Assembly: GCA_934086955.1 (NCBI GenBank)
Contig: CAKOIN010000002.1
Span: 73,401 to 137,400 of the forward strand
Origin: an uncultured Bacilli bacterium
Lineage (GTDB): Bacteria; Bacillota_I; Bacilli_A; RF39; UBA660
DNA: 64,000 nt
Direction of reading: 5' to 3'
Position numbers and translations under genes: made by a program. How positions within the stretch are numbered: position 1 is the stretch's first letter; the number at the start of each line of letters is the position of its first letter. The notes beneath the pieces are model-generated. The model made no database searches. It saw only the letters and a list, made by a program, of their open reading frames with translations, and was not told where the DNA came from. This document shows positions 16,946-55,998 of the stretch, piece after piece.

Positions 16946-16992
16946 AATTGTATATAAATATGATAAAATTCTATATAGAATAGGTGGTAGTA

Positions 16993-18801
16993 ATGAAGAA
17001 TAAAAAAGGATTTACATTAGTGGAATTATTAGCAGTAATAGCTATACTTGCTTTACTTGTTATCATAGCACTTCCAAATATACTAAAAATGTTTAATGAT
17101 GCTAAAAAAGACATATTTTTAACAGAAGCTAAAACAATATATAAAGAAGTATCTAAAAAATATATAAGTGAATCAATGAAAGGAAATAAATTATCATTTG
17201 TTTCATCAAGCAACAATCAAAAACTAGATATATCAACTAAAGAAGGGCTAGAATATTGTATTAATTTAAGTAATAGTGGAAATATTACATCTATGGTAGC
17301 AGTAGATGAAAACTATTATATAGAATATGATGGTAAAAGTGATTTAAATAGTTATACAAAAGATAACATTAAAGAAATTGATAACAAAGTTAAAATGATT
17401 TGTTCTTCTACAATGTCAAAAATAATTGAAGAACCAGAATTAAAAGAGTGTTCTTATGGTGGGAAACTTGAAAATAATGTAACTTATAAAGATGACACTT
17501 ATACTTATACATATCATCCTTGGTCTAATGGATATTGGGAAGTAGTATTAACAGATAAAGAATCAACAACTGTAATAGATAAACCATTTTGCAATATGAT
17601 AGATGGAAAACCAATAAAGAGTGTTAAAGAGTTATTTAAAGATAGTAAAGCTGTATCCATTGATGTAACTAAATTCAATACTAGTAATGTTGATAATATG
17701 GAAAACATGTTTAAAAATACATCAGCAACAGAAATAAAAGGTTTAGAATATTTAGACACCAGTAATGTTACAAAAATGACAAATATGTTTGGTAATACTA
17801 ATGTAGATAATTTAGATTTAAGTGGTTTTGACACTAGTAAAGTTATTAATATGAGTTATATGTTTGTAAACAGTAAAGCGACAACAATAAATGTAAGTAG
17901 TTTTGATACTAGTAATGTTACTAATATGTATGGAATGTTTTATAATACTAGTATAAAAAGTATTAATATAAGTAATTTTAATACAAATAATGTTACAACT
18001 CTAAGCGGTATGTTTAGGGAAAGCAAAATCGAAACACTAGATTTAAGTAGTTTTCACACACCAAAAGTAACAAATATGAGTGATATGTTTGCTGGAACAG
18101 CAAATTTGAAAACTTTAGATCTAAACAATTTTGATACAAGTAATGTAACAAATATGGGCACAATGTTTAGTGGATGTGCAGCTATTACAATTAAAGGACT
18201 AAATAAATTTAATACATCGAAAGTAACTAATATGTATGCAATGTTTAATGCAACTAAAACAAAAGAATTAGATTTAAGTAATTTTGATACAAGTAAAGTC
18301 ACAAACATGGGACTAATGTTTAATGGAAGTAATGCAGAAACAATAAATGTAAGTAGTTTTAATACTAGCAATGTAGTTAGTATGAACTCGATGTTTAGAG
18401 GTACACAAGTTATCAAACTAGATTTAAGTAATTTTGATACAAGTAATGTAACAAATATGGAAGGTATGTTTAATGGTAGTAAAGCTACATCTTTAGATTT
18501 AAGTAATTTTAATACAAGTAATGTAACAAATATGCAATGGATGTTTTATGGTGCAAAGGTAAAAGAACTTGATCTAACTTCATTTAATACATCAAAAGTA
18601 ACTAATATGGGTGGAACATTTAGAGCTACAAGATTAGATTTATTAGATATTAGTAGTTTTGATATAACTAATGCAGATATATCATATATGTTTGATGGAG
18701 CAGTTGTAACTAAAGTACTAGTTAAAAATGAAGAAGATTTAGAAAAATACAAAAATTCTGGATCAGTATTACCATTAACAAAATTTTATATTAAAAGTTA
18801 A
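16993..18801 (+). CDS. prepilin-leader (type IV pilin-like) protein fused to DUF285/BspA-type repeats
   Basis: N-terminal KKGFTLVELLAVIAILALLVII is a class III signal / N-methylation motif. It is followed by 14 repeats of about 25 aa each, ending in N[MT]xxMF (FDTSNVTNMxxMF). Confidence 0.75.
   Translation: MKNKKGFTLVELLAVIAILALLVIIALPNILKMFNDAKKDIFLTEAKTIYKEVSKKYISESMKGNKLSFVSSSNNQKLDISTKEGLEYCINLSNSGNITSMVAVDENYYIEYDGKSDLNSYTKDNIKEIDNKVKMICSSTMSKIIEEPELKECSYGGKLENNVTYKDDTYTYTYHPWSNGYWEVVLTDKESTTVIDKPFCNMIDGKPIKSVKELFKDSKAVSIDVTKFNTSNVDNMENMFKNTSATEIKGLEYLDTSNVTKMTNMFGNTNVDNLDLSGFDTSKVINMSYMFVNSKATTINVSSFDTSNVTNMYGMFYNTSIKSINISNFNTNNVTTLSGMFRESKIETLDLSSFHTPKVTNMSDMFAGTANLKTLDLNNFDTSNVTNMGTMFSGCAAITIKGLNKFNTSKVTNMYAMFNATKTKELDLSNFDTSKVTNMGLMFNGSNAETINVSSFNTSNVVSMNSMFRGTQVIKLDLSNFDTSNVTNMEGMFNGSKATSLDLSNFNTSNVTNMQWMFYGAKVKELDLTSFNTSKVTNMGGTFRATRLDLLDISSFDITNADISYMFDGAVVTKVLVKNEEDLEKYKNSGSVLPLTKFYIKS
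17620..18710 (+). repeat. in-frame tandem coding repeats, about 75 nt each (14 units)
   Basis: Recurring LDLSNFDTSNVTNMxxMF units were counted from the translation. Confidence 0.7.
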
Positions 18802-44696: not shown

Positions 44697-46529
44697 ATGG
44701 CTAAGGAAAAAGAAAAAAAAGTCAAACCTAAGAAAAAAGATACAAAGAAAAAAGATACTATTAAAAAAGATACTACTAAAAAACCAAGAATAAATCCAAT
44801 AAAATTTATTATAAATGAAATAATAGTTTTAATTAAATCAGTTGGCATGGGAGTATTTGGTTTTTTCGATCTTATTGTATCATTCATTGTTTCATTTGTT
44901 TCATATACATACTGGGGAATAAGAAATATAATAGTATTCTTCTGGAAACTATGTTTTAAAGGTGTGTTTGGTGAATTATATGCAATGCTTTTTTCATGTT
45001 ATAGTGGTTTTATATTCATATTTTCAACAATATTTGTTGACCTTCCTATGTTTTTATATGATAAATGTAGTAAAGTAGTATATAAATATTATAAGAAATA
45101 TAAAGACTATCAAGAGGCTCAAAAAGCTAAAAAAGCATTAGAGGCTGAAAAAGCACTTGGAAGTAAATCACTTACAAAAACATTAGCTGATTACATAACA
45201 GAAAAATACGAAAACTTATCATTTGTAAAAGAAGCAAGAGCTAAAAAAGAAGCAAGTTTAGTAGTATTAACATTAGACCCAAATGGTGCTGATGCAGTAA
45301 AATCTGCTACAAAACAAACATATAGGTATCTAGTTAGAGGAAAAGATGGAAAACTTCTAAAAGGTTATTTCCCAGCTTTTTCAAAAATGGATGTATACTC
45401 TTATTTAACAGATGAAGGATATACAGTCTATGAAATAGTAACAAATTGGTCAATCAATTTCTTACATGCTGATGCAACTGCATTTAAACAAAAAATGAAA
45501 ATAAAAGATCTAGTATTCTGGCTTACTCAATTATCAACTTACATTAGAGCAGGTATTGCATTAACTGATGCAGTTAAGATACTAGCAAAACAAGATAAAA
45601 GAAAAAAATATAAACCTGTTTATGAGTCACTTATATATGAACTTACAATGGGTGAAAGTTTTAGTGAATCATTAAGAAAACAAGGAAATGTGTTTCCAGC
45701 ATTACTTGTTAATATGATTAAATCATCAGAACTTATTGGTAATATAGAAGATACATTAGATGAAATGGCTGATTACTATCAAGAGGTTGAAGATACAAAG
45801 AGAGCAGTAATAAGTGCAATGGCATATCCATGTGTCGTATTACTATTTGCTATAGGTATAGTTATATTTATGCTTACATACATAGTACCTAAATTCGTTG
45901 GTATTTATGAATCAATGAATGCTGAATTAAATATAGTTACTGTAATTACTCTACAAATATCAGCTTTCTTAAGAACACAATATGTCCCATTAATACTTGG
46001 AATTGTTGGATTTGCAGTACTTTATACAGTTCTATATATCAAAGTAAAAGCATTTAGAACATTTATGCAAACAATATTTATGAAATTACCAGTAGTTGGA
46101 AATATTCTTACATATAAAGAAATGTCACTATTTGCAAGAACATTTGCAACATTACAAAAGAACAATGTATTATTAACTGATAGTATTGATATACTAGCAA
46201 AAATAACAAATAATGAAATATATAAATCAATAATGAATCACACAATTAATAACTTAATTAAAGGTGAAAAAATGAGTGAATCATTTAAAGATAACTGGGC
46301 AATACCAGATGTAGCATATTACATGATTTTAACTGGTGAATCAACTGGTGAACTTGCAAATATGTTAGAAAAAATAGGCGACTATTATCAAAAATTAGAA
46401 AAGAATAGTGTTAATATGATTAAGACATTTATAGAACCAGTATTAATAGTATTCTTAGCAGTAGTTGTAGGATTTATTCTAATCGCTGTAGTTGTACCAA
46501 TGTTCGGAATTTATTCAACAATAAGCTAG
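44697..46529 (+). CDS. type II secretion/type IV pilus platform protein (GspF/PilC family) with a ~200-aa N-terminal extension
   Basis: Two GspF-type domains (FWLTQLSTYIRAGIAL...; FARTFATLQKNNVLL...). They are preceded by a K-rich tail and extra TM segments. Confidence 0.8.
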   Translation: MAKEKEKKVKPKKKDTKKKDTIKKDTTKKPRINPIKFIINEIIVLIKSVGMGVFGFFDLIVSFIVSFVSYTYWGIRNIIVFFWKLCFKGVFGELYAMLFSCYSGFIFIFSTIFVDLPMFLYDKCSKVVYKYYKKYKDYQEAQKAKKALEAEKALGSKSLTKTLADYITEKYENLSFVKEARAKKEASLVVLTLDPNGADAVKSATKQTYRYLVRGKDGKLLKGYFPAFSKMDVYSYLTDEGYTVYEIVTNWSINFLHADATAFKQKMKIKDLVFWLTQLSTYIRAGIALTDAVKILAKQDKRKKYKPVYESLIYELTMGESFSESLRKQGNVFPALLVNMIKSSELIGNIEDTLDEMADYYQEVEDTKRAVISAMAYPCVVLLFAIGIVIFMLTYIVPKFVGIYESMNAELNIVTVITLQISAFLRTQYVPLILGIVGFAVLYTVLYIKVKAFRTFMQTIFMKLPVVGNILTYKEMSLFARTFATLQKNNVLLTDSIDILAKITNNEIYKSIMNHTINNLIKGEKMSESFKDNWAIPDVAYYMILTGESTGELANMLEKIGDYYQKLEKNSVNMIKTFIEPVLIVFLAVVVGFILIAVVVPMFGIYSTIS

Positions 46530-51272: not shown

Positions 51273-51974
51273 TTAAATTTTATTATTTTTAATAAATTCT
51301 CTGAGCATTTTAATTAATGCTCTTTTTTCTATTCTAGAAACATAACTTCTTGAAATTCTAAGTTTTTTAGCAATTTCTTTCTGTGTTTTTTCTTCTTCAT
51401 TTAAAAGCCCATACCTCATCTTAATTATCTCAAGTTCTCTTTTATTAAGCACATTTAAATATTTAGATAAATTCCTAATATTATCTTTAAATTCTATAGT
51501 AGTTTCTATACTTTCAGTATGTTCTTCAAGTACATCCATTAATGTTATATCTCCTCCATCTTTATCATGAGCAATAACATCATTTAAACTGATGTTAGTA
51601 TTATATTTTTTATTACTCCTAAAATACATAAGTATTTCATTTTCAGCACATTTAGCAGCATAAGTAGTAAGTTTAACACCCTTATTAGCACTATAAGAGT
51701 CAATACCTTTAATAAGACCAATTGTACCAATACTAATGAGATCATCAGCGGAAACTCCCTTTGTTTCATATTTTTTAACTATATGAGCAACTAGTCTTAA
51801 ATTATGTTCAATAAGTTTGTTTCTAGCATCTTTGTCCCCTTCAAGTAATTTTTCAATACATTCATTTTCTTCTTTAGTACTAAGAGGTTTATCAAATACA
51901 TTTAAAGAATAACTAGTAGTAAAAATCATTATTTCTTTTAAAAATTCTTTTATTTTATTAAACAATATAATCAC
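51273..51974 (-). CDS. sigK: sporulation sigma factor SigK (pro-form, uninterrupted)
   Basis: Motifs LIEHNLRLVAHIVKKY, DLISIGTIGLIKGIDSY and EIAKKLRISRSYVSRIEKRAL closely match SigK. The start codon is ambiguous (GTG 51974 or TTG 51965). Confidence 0.85.
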   Translation of the reverse strand: MIILFNKIKEFLKEIMIFTTSYSLNVFDKPLSTKEENECIEKLLEGDKDARNKLIEHNLRLVAHIVKKYETKGVSADDLISIGTIGLIKGIDSYSANKGVKLTTYAAKCAENEILMYFRSNKKYNTNISLNDVIAHDKDGGDITLMDVLEEHTESIETTIEFKDNIRNLSKYLNVLNKRELEIIKMRYGLLNEEEKTQKEIAKKLRISRSYVSRIEKRALIKMLREFIKNNKI

Positions 51975-52185
51975 CTAATTAATAATATGTAAAGCAAACA
52001 AATTAATGCTAAATTAATCTTTTGTAGGTAATACCTGGCTTTATGTTTTTTATAATCAAAAATTCAAAAAAGTCAAGATGTAAAATTTTATTTTTTTAAT
52101 AAAAAATATGCTAAAAAACATTTACAAAAAAATAAGTCCGTGATATTCTTAACTTGGTAATAGAAAACGAAGGTGAGGTAAAAAA

Positions 52186-54477
52186 ATGGAAAAAGATTTC
52201 CTAGACGATCTAGTGGTTGTCAAAAGAAGTGGTCAGAGGGTTAGCTTTAACGATGCTAAGATTGCATTAGCCGTTAAAAAAGGATTTGATAGTGTATACG
52301 AAGAATATGATGAGAAAAATGTATACAAAGTTAAAGAGAAAGTTTTAGATCAAATCAGAAAAGAATACAAAGATAGAAAAACTATTGGAGTAGAAGATGT
52401 ATCTGATGTTATTGAAGAAGTTCTTAAAAAATTAAAATATAACGAAGTATATGAATCGTTTAAAGGATATAGAGAAAGAAGAGATGCATCAAGAGAAGCA
52501 TTTGTAGTTAAACAACAACATAAATTTGTAAAAGCAATTGAATCACTTGGACTTAAAAGTGCAGGAGAAGAAAATTCAAAAAGAGAGAATGCTAATGTTG
52601 ATGGAGATGGTCCAATGGGAACTATGTTACATTTTGGATCAACCGTATCAAGAGAATTTGCAAAAGCATATTTAATGGATAACAAATATAGTAGAGCTCA
52701 TGATGAAGGTGCAATTCATATTCATGATTTAGATTTCTGGGCAATGGGAACTACAACATGTATGCAAATAGATTTAAATAAACTATTTAAAAACGGTTTT
52801 TCAACAGGACATGGTTATCTTAGAACACCAAATAGCATTGGAAGTTATTCAGCACTAGCAGCAATAGCAATTCAAGCAAACCAAAACGAACAACATGGTG
52901 GTCAAAGTATTCCAGCATTTGATTATTATATGGCACCAGGAGTTCTAAAAACATTTAAAAAAGAATTTAAACAAGCCATATATAATTATTTAGATTTTGA
53001 AGGATTTAAAGAATTAATTAATTTTAATAAAGTAACTGATATTATTGATAAATTAGAAAGTATTGAAACAGACTTAAATGTATTTGATGAATTTATGTCA
53101 AAGAGTACAAGACTTAAAGAAATTTTTGAAAGTTCATATGAAAATGCTATGAAGAGAACTGATAGAGCTACTTATCAAGCTATGGAAGCATTTATTCATA
53201 ATTTAAATACGATGCATAGTAGAGCAGGAGCACAAGTTCCATTTAGTTCAGTAAACTTTGGTACAGATACAAGTGCTGAAGGAAGAATGGTTGTTAAAAA
53301 TTATCTATTAGCTACTGAATCAGGCCTTGGTCATGGAGAAACTCCAATATTCCCAATTTCAATATTTAAAGTTAAAGAAGGAGTTAATTACTTTAAAGAA
53401 GATAAAAACTATGATCTATTTAGATTAGCTTGTAGAGTATCAGCAAAAAGATTATTTCCAAACTTTTCATTTATCGATGCTCCATTCAATATTAAATATT
53501 ATGTTCCAGGAGACTTCAATACAGAAGTAGGTTATATGGGATGTAGAACAAGAGTTCTTGCTAATGTATGTGGTCCATCAGTTACACCTGGTCGTGGAAA
53601 TTTAAGCTTTACTTCAATCAATTTACCAAGACTTGGTATTAAATATGGAATTGCTCTTGGAGAAAGAAATAAAGCAGATATGAAAGCTTTCTATAAAGAA
53701 CTTGATGAAACTATGGATTTAGTAAAAGGACAATTACTTCAAAGATTTGAATGTCAATGTTCAAAATCAAGAGCTAACTTTAAGTTCTTACTCGGTTCAG
53801 GAGTTTGGTTAAATAGTGAAAAACTAGAAAATAATAGTAAACTTAGAACAGTTTTAAAGCATGGAACATTATCAATTGGTTTCATTGGTCTTGCAGAAAC
53901 ATTAAAAGCTTTAATTGGTGAACACCATGGTGAAAGTGAAAAAGCTCAAAAACTTGGCTTAGAAATAATCGGACATATGAGAAAAAAATGTGACGAGTAT
54001 ACTAAAGAGTATAATTTAAACTTTACATGCTTAGCAACACCAGCAGAAGGTCTTTCTGGAAGATTTGTTGCAATAGATAGATCAATATATGGAAAAATAA
54101 AAGGAGTTACTGATAGAGATTATTATACTAACTCATTCCATGTACCTGTTTATTATAAAACAAGTGTTAAACATAAACTTGAAGTTGAAGGTAAATATCA
54201 TGAGCTTACAAATGCAGGTCATATTTCATATATAGAACTTGATGGAGATACAGTTAACAATGTAGATGCATTTGAAACAGTAGTTAGAATAATGCATGAT
54301 TGTGGTATTGGATATGGAGCAATTAACCATCCAGTAGATAGAGATCCAGTTTGTGGATATGTAGGGGTTATAAAAGATGTTTGTCCAAGATGTGGAAGAC
54401 ATGAAAATGAAGGCATTGAAATGGAAAAAATATCTTGTGCAGATTGTTTCGATAGCTGTGGAAGCTTAACAAAATAA
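52186..54477 (+). CDS. nrdD: anaerobic ribonucleoside-triphosphate reductase, large part (ATP-cone, barrel and Zn ribbon) without the glycyl-radical loop
   Basis: N-terminal ATP cone (VVKRSGQRVSFNDAKI), class III core and C-terminal CPRCG...CADC. The ORF ends before any RxxGY motif. Confidence 0.9.
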   Translation: MEKDFLDDLVVVKRSGQRVSFNDAKIALAVKKGFDSVYEEYDEKNVYKVKEKVLDQIRKEYKDRKTIGVEDVSDVIEEVLKKLKYNEVYESFKGYRERRDASREAFVVKQQHKFVKAIESLGLKSAGEENSKRENANVDGDGPMGTMLHFGSTVSREFAKAYLMDNKYSRAHDEGAIHIHDLDFWAMGTTTCMQIDLNKLFKNGFSTGHGYLRTPNSIGSYSALAAIAIQANQNEQHGGQSIPAFDYYMAPGVLKTFKKEFKQAIYNYLDFEGFKELINFNKVTDIIDKLESIETDLNVFDEFMSKSTRLKEIFESSYENAMKRTDRATYQAMEAFIHNLNTMHSRAGAQVPFSSVNFGTDTSAEGRMVVKNYLLATESGLGHGETPIFPISIFKVKEGVNYFKEDKNYDLFRLACRVSAKRLFPNFSFIDAPFNIKYYVPGDFNTEVGYMGCRTRVLANVCGPSVTPGRGNLSFTSINLPRLGIKYGIALGERNKADMKAFYKELDETMDLVKGQLLQRFECQCSKSRANFKFLLGSGVWLNSEKLENNSKLRTVLKHGTLSIGFIGLAETLKALIGEHHGESEKAQKLGLEIIGHMRKKCDEYTKEYNLNFTCLATPAEGLSGRFVAIDRSIYGKIKGVTDRDYYTNSFHVPVYYKTSVKHKLEVEGKYHELTNAGHISYIELDGDTVNNVDAFETVVRIMHDCGIGYGAINHPVDRDPVCGYVGVIKDVCPRCGRHENEGIEMEKISCADCFDSCGSLTK

Positions 54478-54504
54478 TTTATTTAAAGGAAAGGAATAAT
54501 TAAA

Positions 54505-54663
54505 ATGGATAAAGAAGTTAAAAAAAGTAAAAAAGTTGTTGGAGAAGGTGTAGGATTTGAAAGAATCAGAAGAATTACTGGATATTTAGTTGGAACATTA
54601 GATAGATTTAATAATGCTAAGAAAGCTGAAGTTAACGACAGAGTAACTCATGCTACAAAGTAA
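54505..54663 (+). CDS. stand-alone glycyl-radical tail of NrdD (52 aa)
   Basis: My own translation is MDKEVKKSKKVVGEGVGFERIRRITGYLVGTLDRFNNAKKAEVNDRVTHATK. It matches the NrdD C-terminal pattern RRVCGYLG...FNAGKxxEVxxRVxH. It has its own RBS (AAAGGAAAGGAA). It lies in the same frame as nrdD, but two stops intervene. Confidence 0.75.
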   Translation: MDKEVKKSKKVVGEGVGFERIRRITGYLVGTLDRFNNAKKAEVNDRVTHATK

Positions 54664-55219
54664 TGAATATATTCGTTTAGCAGCTGATCTTCAAAGTGAT
54701 TCAATAGTTGATGGCCCAGGATTAAGAGCAGTTATTTGGACACAAGGTTGTTCTCATAACTGCAAAGGTTGTCAAAATCCAGGTACACACGATTTTAATG
54801 GTGGTGGACTAGTACCAATAAAAATGGTTTGCGATGCAATTGATGAACTTGAATACCATACTGGAATCACATTTAGTGGAGGAGATCCTATGTTCCAACC
54901 AGTTGCATGTAACGAAATAGCAAAATATGCAAAAAGTAAAGGTTATAATATTTGGGTATATACAGGTTTTACATTTGAAGAATTAATAGAAATGTCAGAA
55001 AAGAATCCAATATATACAGAATTCTTACATAATATAGATGTTTTAGTAGATGGAAGATTCATTTTAGAACAAAGAGATTTATCACTATTATTTAGAGGTT
55101 CAAAGAATCAAAGATTAATAGACATCAAAAAAACATTTATAAATGGTGAAGTAACCTTACTAGATGAATATGTATATAATGAAACAAAAGTATTTGAAAA
55201 AGAGCCAATGTTTGTATAA
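54650..55219 (+). CDS. nrdG: anaerobic ribonucleotide reductase activating protein (radical SAM)
   Basis: IVDGPGLRAVIWTQGCSHNCKGCQNPGTHDF. It overlaps the 52-aa ORF by 14 nt. Confidence 0.85.
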   Translation: MLQSNEYIRLAADLQSDSIVDGPGLRAVIWTQGCSHNCKGCQNPGTHDFNGGGLVPIKMVCDAIDELEYHTGITFSGGDPMFQPVACNEIAKYAKSKGYNIWVYTGFTFEELIEMSEKNPIYTEFLHNIDVLVDGRFILEQRDLSLLFRGSKNQRLIDIKKTFINGEVTLLDEYVYNETKVFEKEPMFV

Positions 55220-55269
55220 TTGGTTCTTTTATTTGATAATGCAATAATTAAAATGAAAGGAGTGATTAA

Positions 55270-55998
55270 ATGAAAGAAAATACAAAAAGATTTATAGTAA
55301 CATTACTAGCTACAACAACAGTACTTACAGTAAGTGCTTGTTCATCTGAAAAAGAAGACACTATAGATGAAGAAAAAACAATAAATAGTGAACTTAAGAA
55401 AAATGCTGAAGCAGAAGTAGCAAGTTTCATCCCAATTGAAGATAATTTAGATGAATTAGTAGAACTTGAAAATTCACTTTATGATTATAAACAATACTTA
55501 TATTGTAGAAAATCTGAAGTTTATCGTGATGGTGTTCGTGAAATTTCAAATAGTTATAAATTAGAAGACGAATTACTTGATTTACCAGAACAAAAATTAA
55601 TATATTTTGGTTATAGAGAAGATAGTGATCCAAATGGAAATAAAGTAATGGTAAAAGATAAAGAAGGAAATAGTATAGAAGAATTAATTAGCGAAGGATA
55701 CACTTATATTAGAGCTAATGATATATATGAATATTGTGATCAAGAACTAATTATATCGCATATGTTTTATGGTTATAGAATAGAAACTTTACCAACAGGT
55801 GAGAATACAATATATAGAAGTGAACCAACTTCATCAATAGAAGAACTAATAGATAAAGGATATACTCATATTAAACAAGGAGAAATATATTATGCATATG
55901 ACACTATAACGGGAAAATTCATAGAATTTCAAGATACAATGGGTACTGAAAAAGTAAAAATACAAGAATTAACTCTAAAGAAATCATCATTAAACTGA
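55270..55998 (+). CDS. lipoprotein, function unknown
   Basis: Signal peptide with lipobox LTVSAC. Confidence 0.55.
   Translation: MKENTKRFIVTLLATTTVLTVSACSSEKEDTIDEEKTINSELKKNAEAEVASFIPIEDNLDELVELENSLYDYKQYLYCRKSEVYRDGVREISNSYKLEDELLDLPEQKLIYFGYREDSDPNGNKVMVKDKEGNSIEELISEGYTYIRANDIYEYCDQELIISHMFYGYRIETLPTGENTIYRSEPTSSIEELIDKGYTHIKQGEIYYAYDTITGKFIEFQDTMGTEKVKIQELTLKKSSLN

Follow-up and report, generated by a model that had tools for sequence, protein, structure and literature searches.

The glycyl radical enzymes characterised so far all carry the radical glycine on the catalytic chain itself, and free radical domains (Escherichia coli GrcA/YfiD and phage T4 Y06I) are known only for pyruvate formate-lyase (PFL); according to Andorfer et al. 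(2021) and a review of June 2026, spare-part proteins are known for PFL only, and the matter is undetermined for the other glycyl radical enzymes (PMC8683613, PMC13450708). Here we analyse a 64-kb stretch of DNA from an uncultured Bacilli bacterium (contig CAKOIN010000002.1, positions 73,401 to 137,400; the whole stretch is called "the window" below), in which the gene for the anaerobic ribonucleotide reductase (RNR) NrdD stops before its radical glycine and a 52-codon open reading frame (ORF), which by its sequence encodes the missing loop, lies between nrdD and the activase gene nrdG. Judged by sequence comparison, one NrdD is made up here of two polypeptides that are translated separately and conserved together, with the activase encoded beside them, and the enzyme is very probably a class III (anaerobic, glycyl radical) RNR built from a 763-amino acid (AA) large subunit and a 52-AA small subunit.

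The single-chain NrdD enzymes with their NrdG activases (Prevotella copri, structure 8P23; phage T4, 1H78; E. coli) have in common with this locus the fold, the ATP-cone, the finger-loop cysteine, the formate-type asparagine and the NxN flap, as well as a Zn knuckle, an RITGY loop followed by DRFN...DRV(K/T)H, and an adjacent radical-SAM (S-adenosylmethionine) activase. In the P. copri enzyme (PcNrdD) the glycyl radical domain occupies residues 676–739 and consists of a structural Zn site, a buried loop with Gly711, a helix and a surface tail; it is mobile, and is disordered in the dATP-inhibited state (PMC11226230). The locus in the window differs in that the chain is cut inside this domain, that about 40 codons are inserted, and that the first Zn-site cysteine is an aspartate. 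By sequence the split enzyme is a class III RNR that fails a single family feature, a radical glycine on the catalytic chain.

The small protein resembles GrcA/YfiD of E. coli and T4 Y06I (vs.6), the phage copy of GrcA (PMC13450708), in being a stand-alone protein with a glycyl radical loop of which phage versions exist. The GrcA loop is activated by its partner's activase and docks into a barrel that has no working loop of its own (PMC13450708, PMC8683613). As here, GrcA also has a strand overlapping one still present in its large partner, and its N-terminal leader is likewise little conserved. On the other hand, the small protein described here is NrdD-type rather than PFL-type, has 52 AAs rather than 127, and is encoded between the genes for the enzyme and its activase. 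Since the adjacent large subunit never has a radical glycine, the small protein should be an obligate subunit and the only copy of the loop at its locus, not a back-up as GrcA is. A preliminary description of this locus, made from the letters of the window, had likened the small protein to GrcA/YfiD; the likeness holds as far as a stand-alone radical protein is concerned, but the protein is neither of the GrcA family by sequence (below) nor a back-up.

Other RNR chains are known in pieces. In the class II NrdJa/NrdJb of Pseudomonas aeruginosa and Thermus phage phiYS40 the chain is likewise divided between two consecutive ORFs, with the C-terminal module and its Zn finger on the second piece (PMC9669993; PMC3653736); this enzyme differs in being B12-dependent, in having no glycyl radical, in that NrdJb is a large folded protein, and in that the cut leaves the radical element unseparated. 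Among phage RNR genes, T4 nrdD contains a group I intron, others contain intein or homing-endonuclease insertions, and the nrdD of Aeromonas phage phiAS4 is in three pieces (PMC3653736). Such fragmented phage nrdD and nrdA genes are sporadic and come from mobile introns, inteins, endonuclease genes or unexplained recent breaks, whereas here there is no intervening element (27 nt in the window, 14–54 nt in relatives) and the chain is cut at a conserved site in two classes of bacteria. None of these precedents separates the radical element, and no nrdD case among them is a conserved two-gene architecture. The preliminary description knew of no such arrangement for NrdD, and we also found no account, in the literature searched, of a class III RNR split at this junction. 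The largest RNR phylogeny dropped sequences of less than 400 residues, a filter that would discard the small subunit, so the large subunits would be scored as ordinary NrdDs.

The large and small proteins

In the large ORF PF03477 (ATP-cone) matches residues 10–100 and PF13597 (NRDD) residues 134–744 (E = 2.5e-184, 614.5 bits against a cut-off of 26.2), and the NCBIfam model PRK07111/NF005497 is matched over positions 4–715 of its 746 (995 bits, cut-off 764). The nearest solved structure is 8P23, to residues 8–709 of which residues 10–743 align with E = 2.5e-174. In this alignment C192 lies with the TC motif that holds Cys171 of PcNrdD, C453 (MGCRTRV) with the motif that holds Cys416, and N472 (RGNLSF) with the motif that holds Asn435, the formate-type position. 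These two cysteines and the asparagine are invariant in 28 relatives, and the RENAN (NxN) flap is intact and likewise invariant in relatives. The chain stops at position 715 of PRK07111, and RxxGY is not on the barrel chain.

The canonical Zn site of the large subunit is D720/C723 plus C733/C736 (DRDPVCGY...CPRCG, aligned to CLDC...CPKC of P. copri); three of its four cysteines are present and the first is replaced by Asp720, and fused (single-chain) relatives are the same in this respect. The aspartate stands at this position throughout the clade, in split and fused forms alike (DRDPVCGY as against RCLDCGY in P. copri; window 54343–54354). The cut falls between the Zn knuckle and the glycine loop, near PcNrdD residue 705, and leaves the knuckle with the barrel; the approximately 40 codons inserted there comprise the tail of the large subunit, the stop, a Shine-Dalgarno (SD) sequence and the leader of the small protein. 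The nrdD ORF ends in ...CPRCGRHENEGIEMEKISCADCFDSCGSLTK (C-terminal peptide ...ISCADCFDSCGSLTK), with its stop directly after the zinc knuckle and tail. The preliminary description had it ending just after a Zn ribbon and without RxxGY, which is correct for the cut site, but the 'CADC' in question belongs to the extra tail beyond the canonical Zn site.

The small protein has a Lys-rich leader (residues 1–12) and then a core in which GEGVGFERI, RRITG26Y27, LVGTLDR34, FNNAKKAEV and NDRVTH follow one another directly. Its residues 16–51 match PRK07111 positions 710–745 (E = 4.5e-12), and a profile of the small-protein family aligns to residues 708–740 of 8P23 with G26, Y27 and R34 at Gly711, Tyr712 and Arg719, respectively; Gly26 is invariant among 99 diverse small proteins. 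The mini-protein thus holds the loop, short helix and C-terminal tail of NrdD. On the Pfam NRDD model (562 positions) the large ORF occupies 1–533 and the small ORF 533–562. Together the profile matches of the two ORFs cover the NrdD model once, so by sequence they are two parts of one NrdD, and the similarity of each to NrdD is far beyond chance. The earlier proposal that the 52-AA ORF is the missing radical loop of NrdD is borne out by the PRK07111, Pfam NRDD and 8P23 alignments. At E <= 1 the small ORF matched NrdD models only and had no match to PF01228 (the PFL-type Gly_radical domain) or to the GrcA NCBIfam model, and it is therefore not a member of the GrcA family by sequence. The product of the third gene, NrdG, matches TIGR02491 with 139.9 bits (equivalog cut-off 126.1) and PF13353 with E = 1.1e-37.

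Direct reading of the sequence agrees with all the coordinates first given for nrdD, both TAA stops, the 52-AA ORF and the 14-nt nrdG overlap (Table 1). The ribosome-binding-site-like motif that was noted with them is also present, one base away from its originally implied position.

Table 1. Parts of the split nrdD locus, with positions in the window
Feature	Position	Strand	Remarks
nrdD-large	52186..54477	+	763 AAs; ATP-cone, ten-stranded barrel, Zn knuckle; without radical glycine
Zn-knuckle region DRDPVCGYVGVIKDVCPRCG	54343..54396	+	D720, C723, C733, C736; aligns to NRCLDCGY...CPKCG of 8P23
Large-subunit tail RHENEGIEMEKISCADCFDSCGSLTK	54397..54474	+	Apparent decayed duplicate of the strand leading into the glycine loop, then Cys-rich end
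Stop and 27-nt spacer	54475..54504	+	TAA at 54475-54477; second in-frame TAA at 54484-54486
SD-like AAAGGAAAGGAA	54485-54496	+	Purine-rich; read directly from the sequence
Radical mini-subunit (predicted)	54505..54663	+	ATG at 54505; 52 AAs; PRK07111 positions 710-745
GGA codon of Gly26	54580..54582	+	Predicted radical site; RITGY motif; equivalent to Gly711 of PcNrdD
nrdG (activase)	54650..55219	+	189 AAs; TIGR02491, PF13353; start overlaps end of small ORF by 14 nt

Conservation, spread and origin of the split

A scan of one genome per GTDB species gave 80 loci in which NrdD is 68–99% identical, all from metagenome-assembled genomes of uncultured gut bacteria labelled Bacilli, Erysipelotrichaceae, Mollicutes, or Clostridium sp. 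CAG:524 or CAG:1000. Two are cut off by contig ends; nrdD is split in 77 of the 78 informative loci and fused in one (L074). In the 76 split loci that could be read fully, large gene, small gene and nrdG are adjacent without exception, the small ORF occupies, with respect to nrdD, frame 0 in 26 loci, +1 in 27 and +2 in 23, the spacer is 14–54 nt long (median 24), the ATG is preceded by an SD motif in all but three (73/76), and the small protein has 49–67 AAs. The 14-nt overlap of the small ORF with nrdG is found in most related loci. Pairwise ratios of nonsynonymous to synonymous substitution rates (dN/dS) are 0.12 for the core of the small protein and 0.49 for its leader, 0.03 for the Zn region of the large subunit (78 relatives) and 0.22 for the large-subunit tail; by this measure both the large and the small part are under purifying selection.

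The preliminary description had proposed that orthologous loci be inspected for the same arrangement, and in them the split and, with three exceptions, a separate SD are conserved. It had also named two scenarios that would speak against a split gene, namely stops that vanish on resequencing and relatives with an unsplit nrdD, and both are excluded by these comparative data. With nearly all related species loci split, a variable frame, a dedicated SD and ATG, purifying selection, and occurrence in cultured isolates as well (below), the sequences indicate that the split locus is real, conserved and widespread.

The best 120 database matches to the 52-AA protein are all stand-alone proteins of 48–67 AAs, and stand-alone homologues of 48–81 AAs are present in hundreds of contigs. 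In a library clustered at 50% identity 2042 clusters match with E <= 1e-3, and E is <= 1e-10 for 508 of these; nearly all of the best 150 are 51–124 AAs long, and the 149 family sequences retrieved all begin with Met and have very diverse leaders and tails. In databases the small gene is entered as 'hypothetical protein' or under the whole enzyme's name. A profile built from 99 small proteins found members in cultured Clostridia of the family Butyricicoccaceae: Butyricicoccus porcorum (OUM21316.1; locus read in metagenome contigs that carry the recorded protein), Intestinibacillus massiliensis (WP_087065423.1; isolate assembly) and Agathobaculum sp. Marseille-P7918 (WP_125116237.1; isolate assembly). 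Their loci, of 56–62% GC, have nrdD (769–784 AAs), the small gene (61–75 AAs) and nrdG in the same order. The split is kept across Bacilli and Clostridia lineages down to about 55% NrdD identity, and the nrdD-small-nrdG locus is also found in thousands of metagenomic sequences.

The tail of the large subunit bears on how the gene came to be divided. After the Zn knuckle fused relatives read CP.CGR.E.DGVKFERIRRITGY; the split large subunit continues CP.CGR.EGEGVEMEKIN..., and the small protein starts ...VGEGVxFERIRRITGY, so that both pieces carry a copy of the GEGVxxExI strand. The large tail takes the position of ...EDGVKFERIRRITGY in the fused relatives, and runs some 20 conserved codons beyond the last point of homology before its stop. 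HMMER aligns the window tail to the strand that precedes the glycine in 9D3X (KTVDVVKRTCG), MAFFT spontaneously places the EGVxFERIRRITGY of fused and small proteins onto the large tail, and hhalign of tails against small proteins gives E = 0.004. In the Butyricicoccaceae the tail is about 40 AAs long (GEGVSLDKLRRIGVYKHLNS...), and that of Intestinibacillus matches the small protein in BLASTP (E = 2e-4), with RRITGY changed to RRIGVY and the glycine lost. As far as these alignments go, the large tail is what remains of a second, decayed copy of the small protein's beginning, so that a partial tandem duplication at the 3' end of the gene is the probable origin of the fission. The upstream copy would then have decayed into the tail, and the downstream copy would have gained an SD, an ATG and a leader.

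The Butyricicoccaceae tails also have a conserved T(V/I/L)GYHGDP..EE.DR.PN segment (L083:4850-4966, L086:4860-4978, L088:4860-4981), which from its sequence may represent another remnant of the glycine loop and the AEE.DRVKH helix, one without the Arg of RxxGY. In the Bacilli lineage the large subunits have additional cysteines (CxxC, NCGC, CC) at the end of their tails.

Fused NrdD is found in a minority of close relatives, 74–78% identical (L074:2385-4757; P0385-P0394, P0399 and P0404, with ...CPCCGRSEEDGVKFERIRRITGY...), and makes up 12 of 120 among the matches listed. In a neighbour-joining tree without support values the 12 fused clusters fall between split clades. This suggests, tentatively, that the fused forms are secondary re-fusions by recombination between the repeats, with collapse of the duplicated GEGV segment.

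Phage copies and the possible role of a separate radical subunit

Searched against IMG/VR viral contigs, the small-protein profile found 566 relatives. We examined the contexts of the best 80 of these, all of which are short ORFs, with as much as 10 kb of sequence read to either side, or less where a contig ended (mean locus length 13.5 kb). Neither NrdD-large nor NrdG is encoded within the stretch read in 76 of the 80 phage or prophage contigs (L090-L169, L171-L246). In two AT-rich contigs nrdG comes directly before an overlapping small gene, without nrdD-large (L177:9478-10162, L184:262-970), one contig has the full trio, and in one a cone-less nrdD-large is followed by 1.9 kb of unrelated genes and then the small gene. 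The last of these, a phage contig of 60% GC (L193:6189-10144), encodes an NrdD-large of 641 AAs without an ATP-cone that ends in ...CPRCGRREGEAVSEEKLESLKKKYKLR, and its approximately 1.9 kb of intervening DNA consists of small ORFs. At two phage loci that were sampled the neighbours include anti-repressor, DNA methyltransferase, PAPS (3'-phosphoadenosine 5'-phosphosulfate) reductase and small terminase families. Among the cultured phages of INPHARED tblastn found no orphan copy, and the motif only in the fused NrdD of Clostridioides difficile phages and in faecal contigs without annotation that are entered as 'Bacteriophage sp.'. The small protein has no family of its own in PHROGs, where it matches only the C-terminus of NrdD families.

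Since nearly all the phage copies stand alone or with nrdG only, they suggest that the mini-protein works in trans. By analogy with T4 Y06I/vs.6 the orphan copies look like radical cartridges, and the phages of L177 and L184 seem to bring only an activase and a cartridge. The preliminary description had proposed a radical mini-protein that acts in trans; a conserved separate protein and its phage orphans agree with this, and activation, docking and exchange in trans are what we infer from them.

The enzyme could work as follows. NrdG, presumably translationally coupled to the small ORF, would abstract a hydrogen from Gly26, either on the free peptide or on the complex, and the Gly26 loop would insert into the barrel next to Cys453. 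Catalysis would then proceed as in single-chain NrdD, with formate as the proposed reductant because Asn472 occupies the formate-type position. After oxygen cleavage at the radical glycine only the 6-kDa peptide would need to be replaced, and phages appear to exploit this exchange by carrying the cartridge, and sometimes the activase, without a large subunit. The benefit of the split may be that the oxygen-labile element becomes a cheap, replaceable cartridge, an idea drawn from the YfiD analogy and the phage distribution, to which we give slightly less than an even chance. Its full form, in which NrdG charges a free, diffusible and consumable peptide that is swapped after oxygen damage, and phages run the host large subunit with cartridges of their own, has about the same odds.

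Several points weigh against this scheme of a two-piece enzyme with a replaceable cartridge. Support for it comes from comparison of sequences. AlphaFold2, given the large and small proteins as one chain, returned a mean predicted local distance difference test (pLDDT) score of 67.9 with 28 alignment rows (residues 715–735 and 740–815 below 50) and of 54.7 with 142 rows after fused rows were dropped (residues 611–799 below 50); with pLDDT below 50 for the whole region of Zn site, tail and small protein, docking is unsupported by the modelling. The phage contigs were read in part and nrdD-large may sit farther off, the bacterial genome beyond the window may hold another RNR (there is no second RNR or nrdD within the 64 kb), and the conserved Cys-rich tail of the large subunit is left unaccounted for. 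In addition, neutral fission would yield identical bacterial loci.

Neutral fission is the main rival to a cartridge benefit. It supposes that the two polypeptides form a stable, one-time complex that behaves as single-chain NrdD, without exchange or repair, and that the copies in phages are relics or serve a different purpose. The split class II NrdJa/NrdJb is a precedent, since it acts as a complex and is not known to have a repair role (cited in PMC9669993). The position of the fused relatives among split clades in the neighbour-joining tree, as if the two states interconvert easily, and the weakly constrained leader are also in keeping with it. It is harder to reconcile with persistence of the split in Bacilli and Clostridia over such NrdD divergence, with fused forms rare, and with an intact, conserved small gene that occurs alone in 76 of the 80 phage loci and with nrdG only in two more; the latter is difficult to explain unless the peptide serves a separately made large subunit. 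We think neutral fission unlikely, though a serious contender.

A second possibility is that a complete NrdD is encoded elsewhere and has the small protein as its spare part, in the manner of GrcA, with the large ORF next to the small gene an inactive or regulatory paralogue. The phage orphans do resemble T4 Y06I, which is a spare part for an intact host enzyme. The large ORF nevertheless keeps all the catalytic residues and is under very strong constraint, it is adjacent to the small gene and nrdG at every one of the fully read bacterial split loci, no second nrdD is present in the window, and neither PFL-type Gly_radical nor GrcA signatures ever occur in the small gene. This explanation is accordingly quite improbable.

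Even less credit can be given to recoding, by which readthrough, frameshifting or ribosomal bypass would produce a single fused NrdD and the small ORF would be an illusion of annotation. Among phages, T4 gene 60 is a precedent for ribosomes that bypass a coding gap, and in the window the ATG is in frame with nrdD, 10 codons past the stop; this last is a coincidence of this genome. Because the frame of the small ORF varies among relatives, in about equal shares of 0, +1 and +2, readthrough, frameshifting and bypass are excluded as a general mechanism, and with spacers of such different lengths and an SD nearly always present there is no fixed take-off or landing geometry. Two TAA codons stand in series here, TAA being the stop codon used most in the window (by 22 of 30 long ORFs); some 20 codons of the large tail lie past the homology, and selection acts on this tail too; Rfam gives no match; and phage loci have the small ORF without an upstream nrdD.

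A sequencing or assembly artefact, or a decaying pseudogene with another RNR in use, can hardly be considered, for although an NrdD truncated before its radical glycine is the expected product of a nonsense mutation and only 64 kb are visible, independent projects have yielded the same architecture in 77 species-level genomes, and it recurs in isolate assemblies and hundreds of independent contigs (the entry P0352 is listed in 720 blocks of the sequence collection), both parts are under purifying selection, and the catalytic residues are intact. Two other candidates were rejected: a split intein, for whose halves the tail and leader are too short, and reassignment of the stop codon, which the general use of TAA as a stop in the window rules out.

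If the split RNR is as described, an essential enzyme of DNA synthesis normally carries its radical loop on a separate small protein in many gut Firmicutes. The carriers include cultivable species, so the spare-part question is directly testable. The small protein would be a natural minimal substrate for NrdG, and the system would lend itself to the study of the passage of a glycyl radical domain into and out of the barrel and of how anaerobes handle transient oxygen; the phage copies are a candidate class of auxiliary genes. Should the small subunit truly be a replaceable cartridge, NrdD would become the first glycyl radical enzyme other than PFL with a spare-part system, and the phage copies a new type of auxiliary gene.

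Surroundings of the locus in the window

No terminator was found between nrdD, the small gene and nrdG, and a scan for promoters and terminators gave nothing above background. Rfam has no match in 51900–55400, the spacer included, and a search for NrdR boxes gave no more matches than expected by chance and none upstream of nrdD. Just upstream of nrdD and divergent from it is a 233-AA ORF (51273–51974, - strand), which from its translation only we take to be sigma-70-family-like; the 211-nt intergenic region between them contains neither an NrdR box nor an Rfam element.

The window has 25.6% GC, and the neighbouring genes encode housekeeping proteins (DnaE, SecA, UvrA, LepA, IleRS and Obg). Farther away, a 605-AA ORF (16984–18801) contains four repeats of the DUF285 ('Mycoplasma') kind and, at its N-terminus, a prepilin-type methylation motif, and a T2SS-F-like gene is located at 44697–46529; from their appearance these two belong to a type IV pilus or competence-like system in a reduced genome of low GC content.

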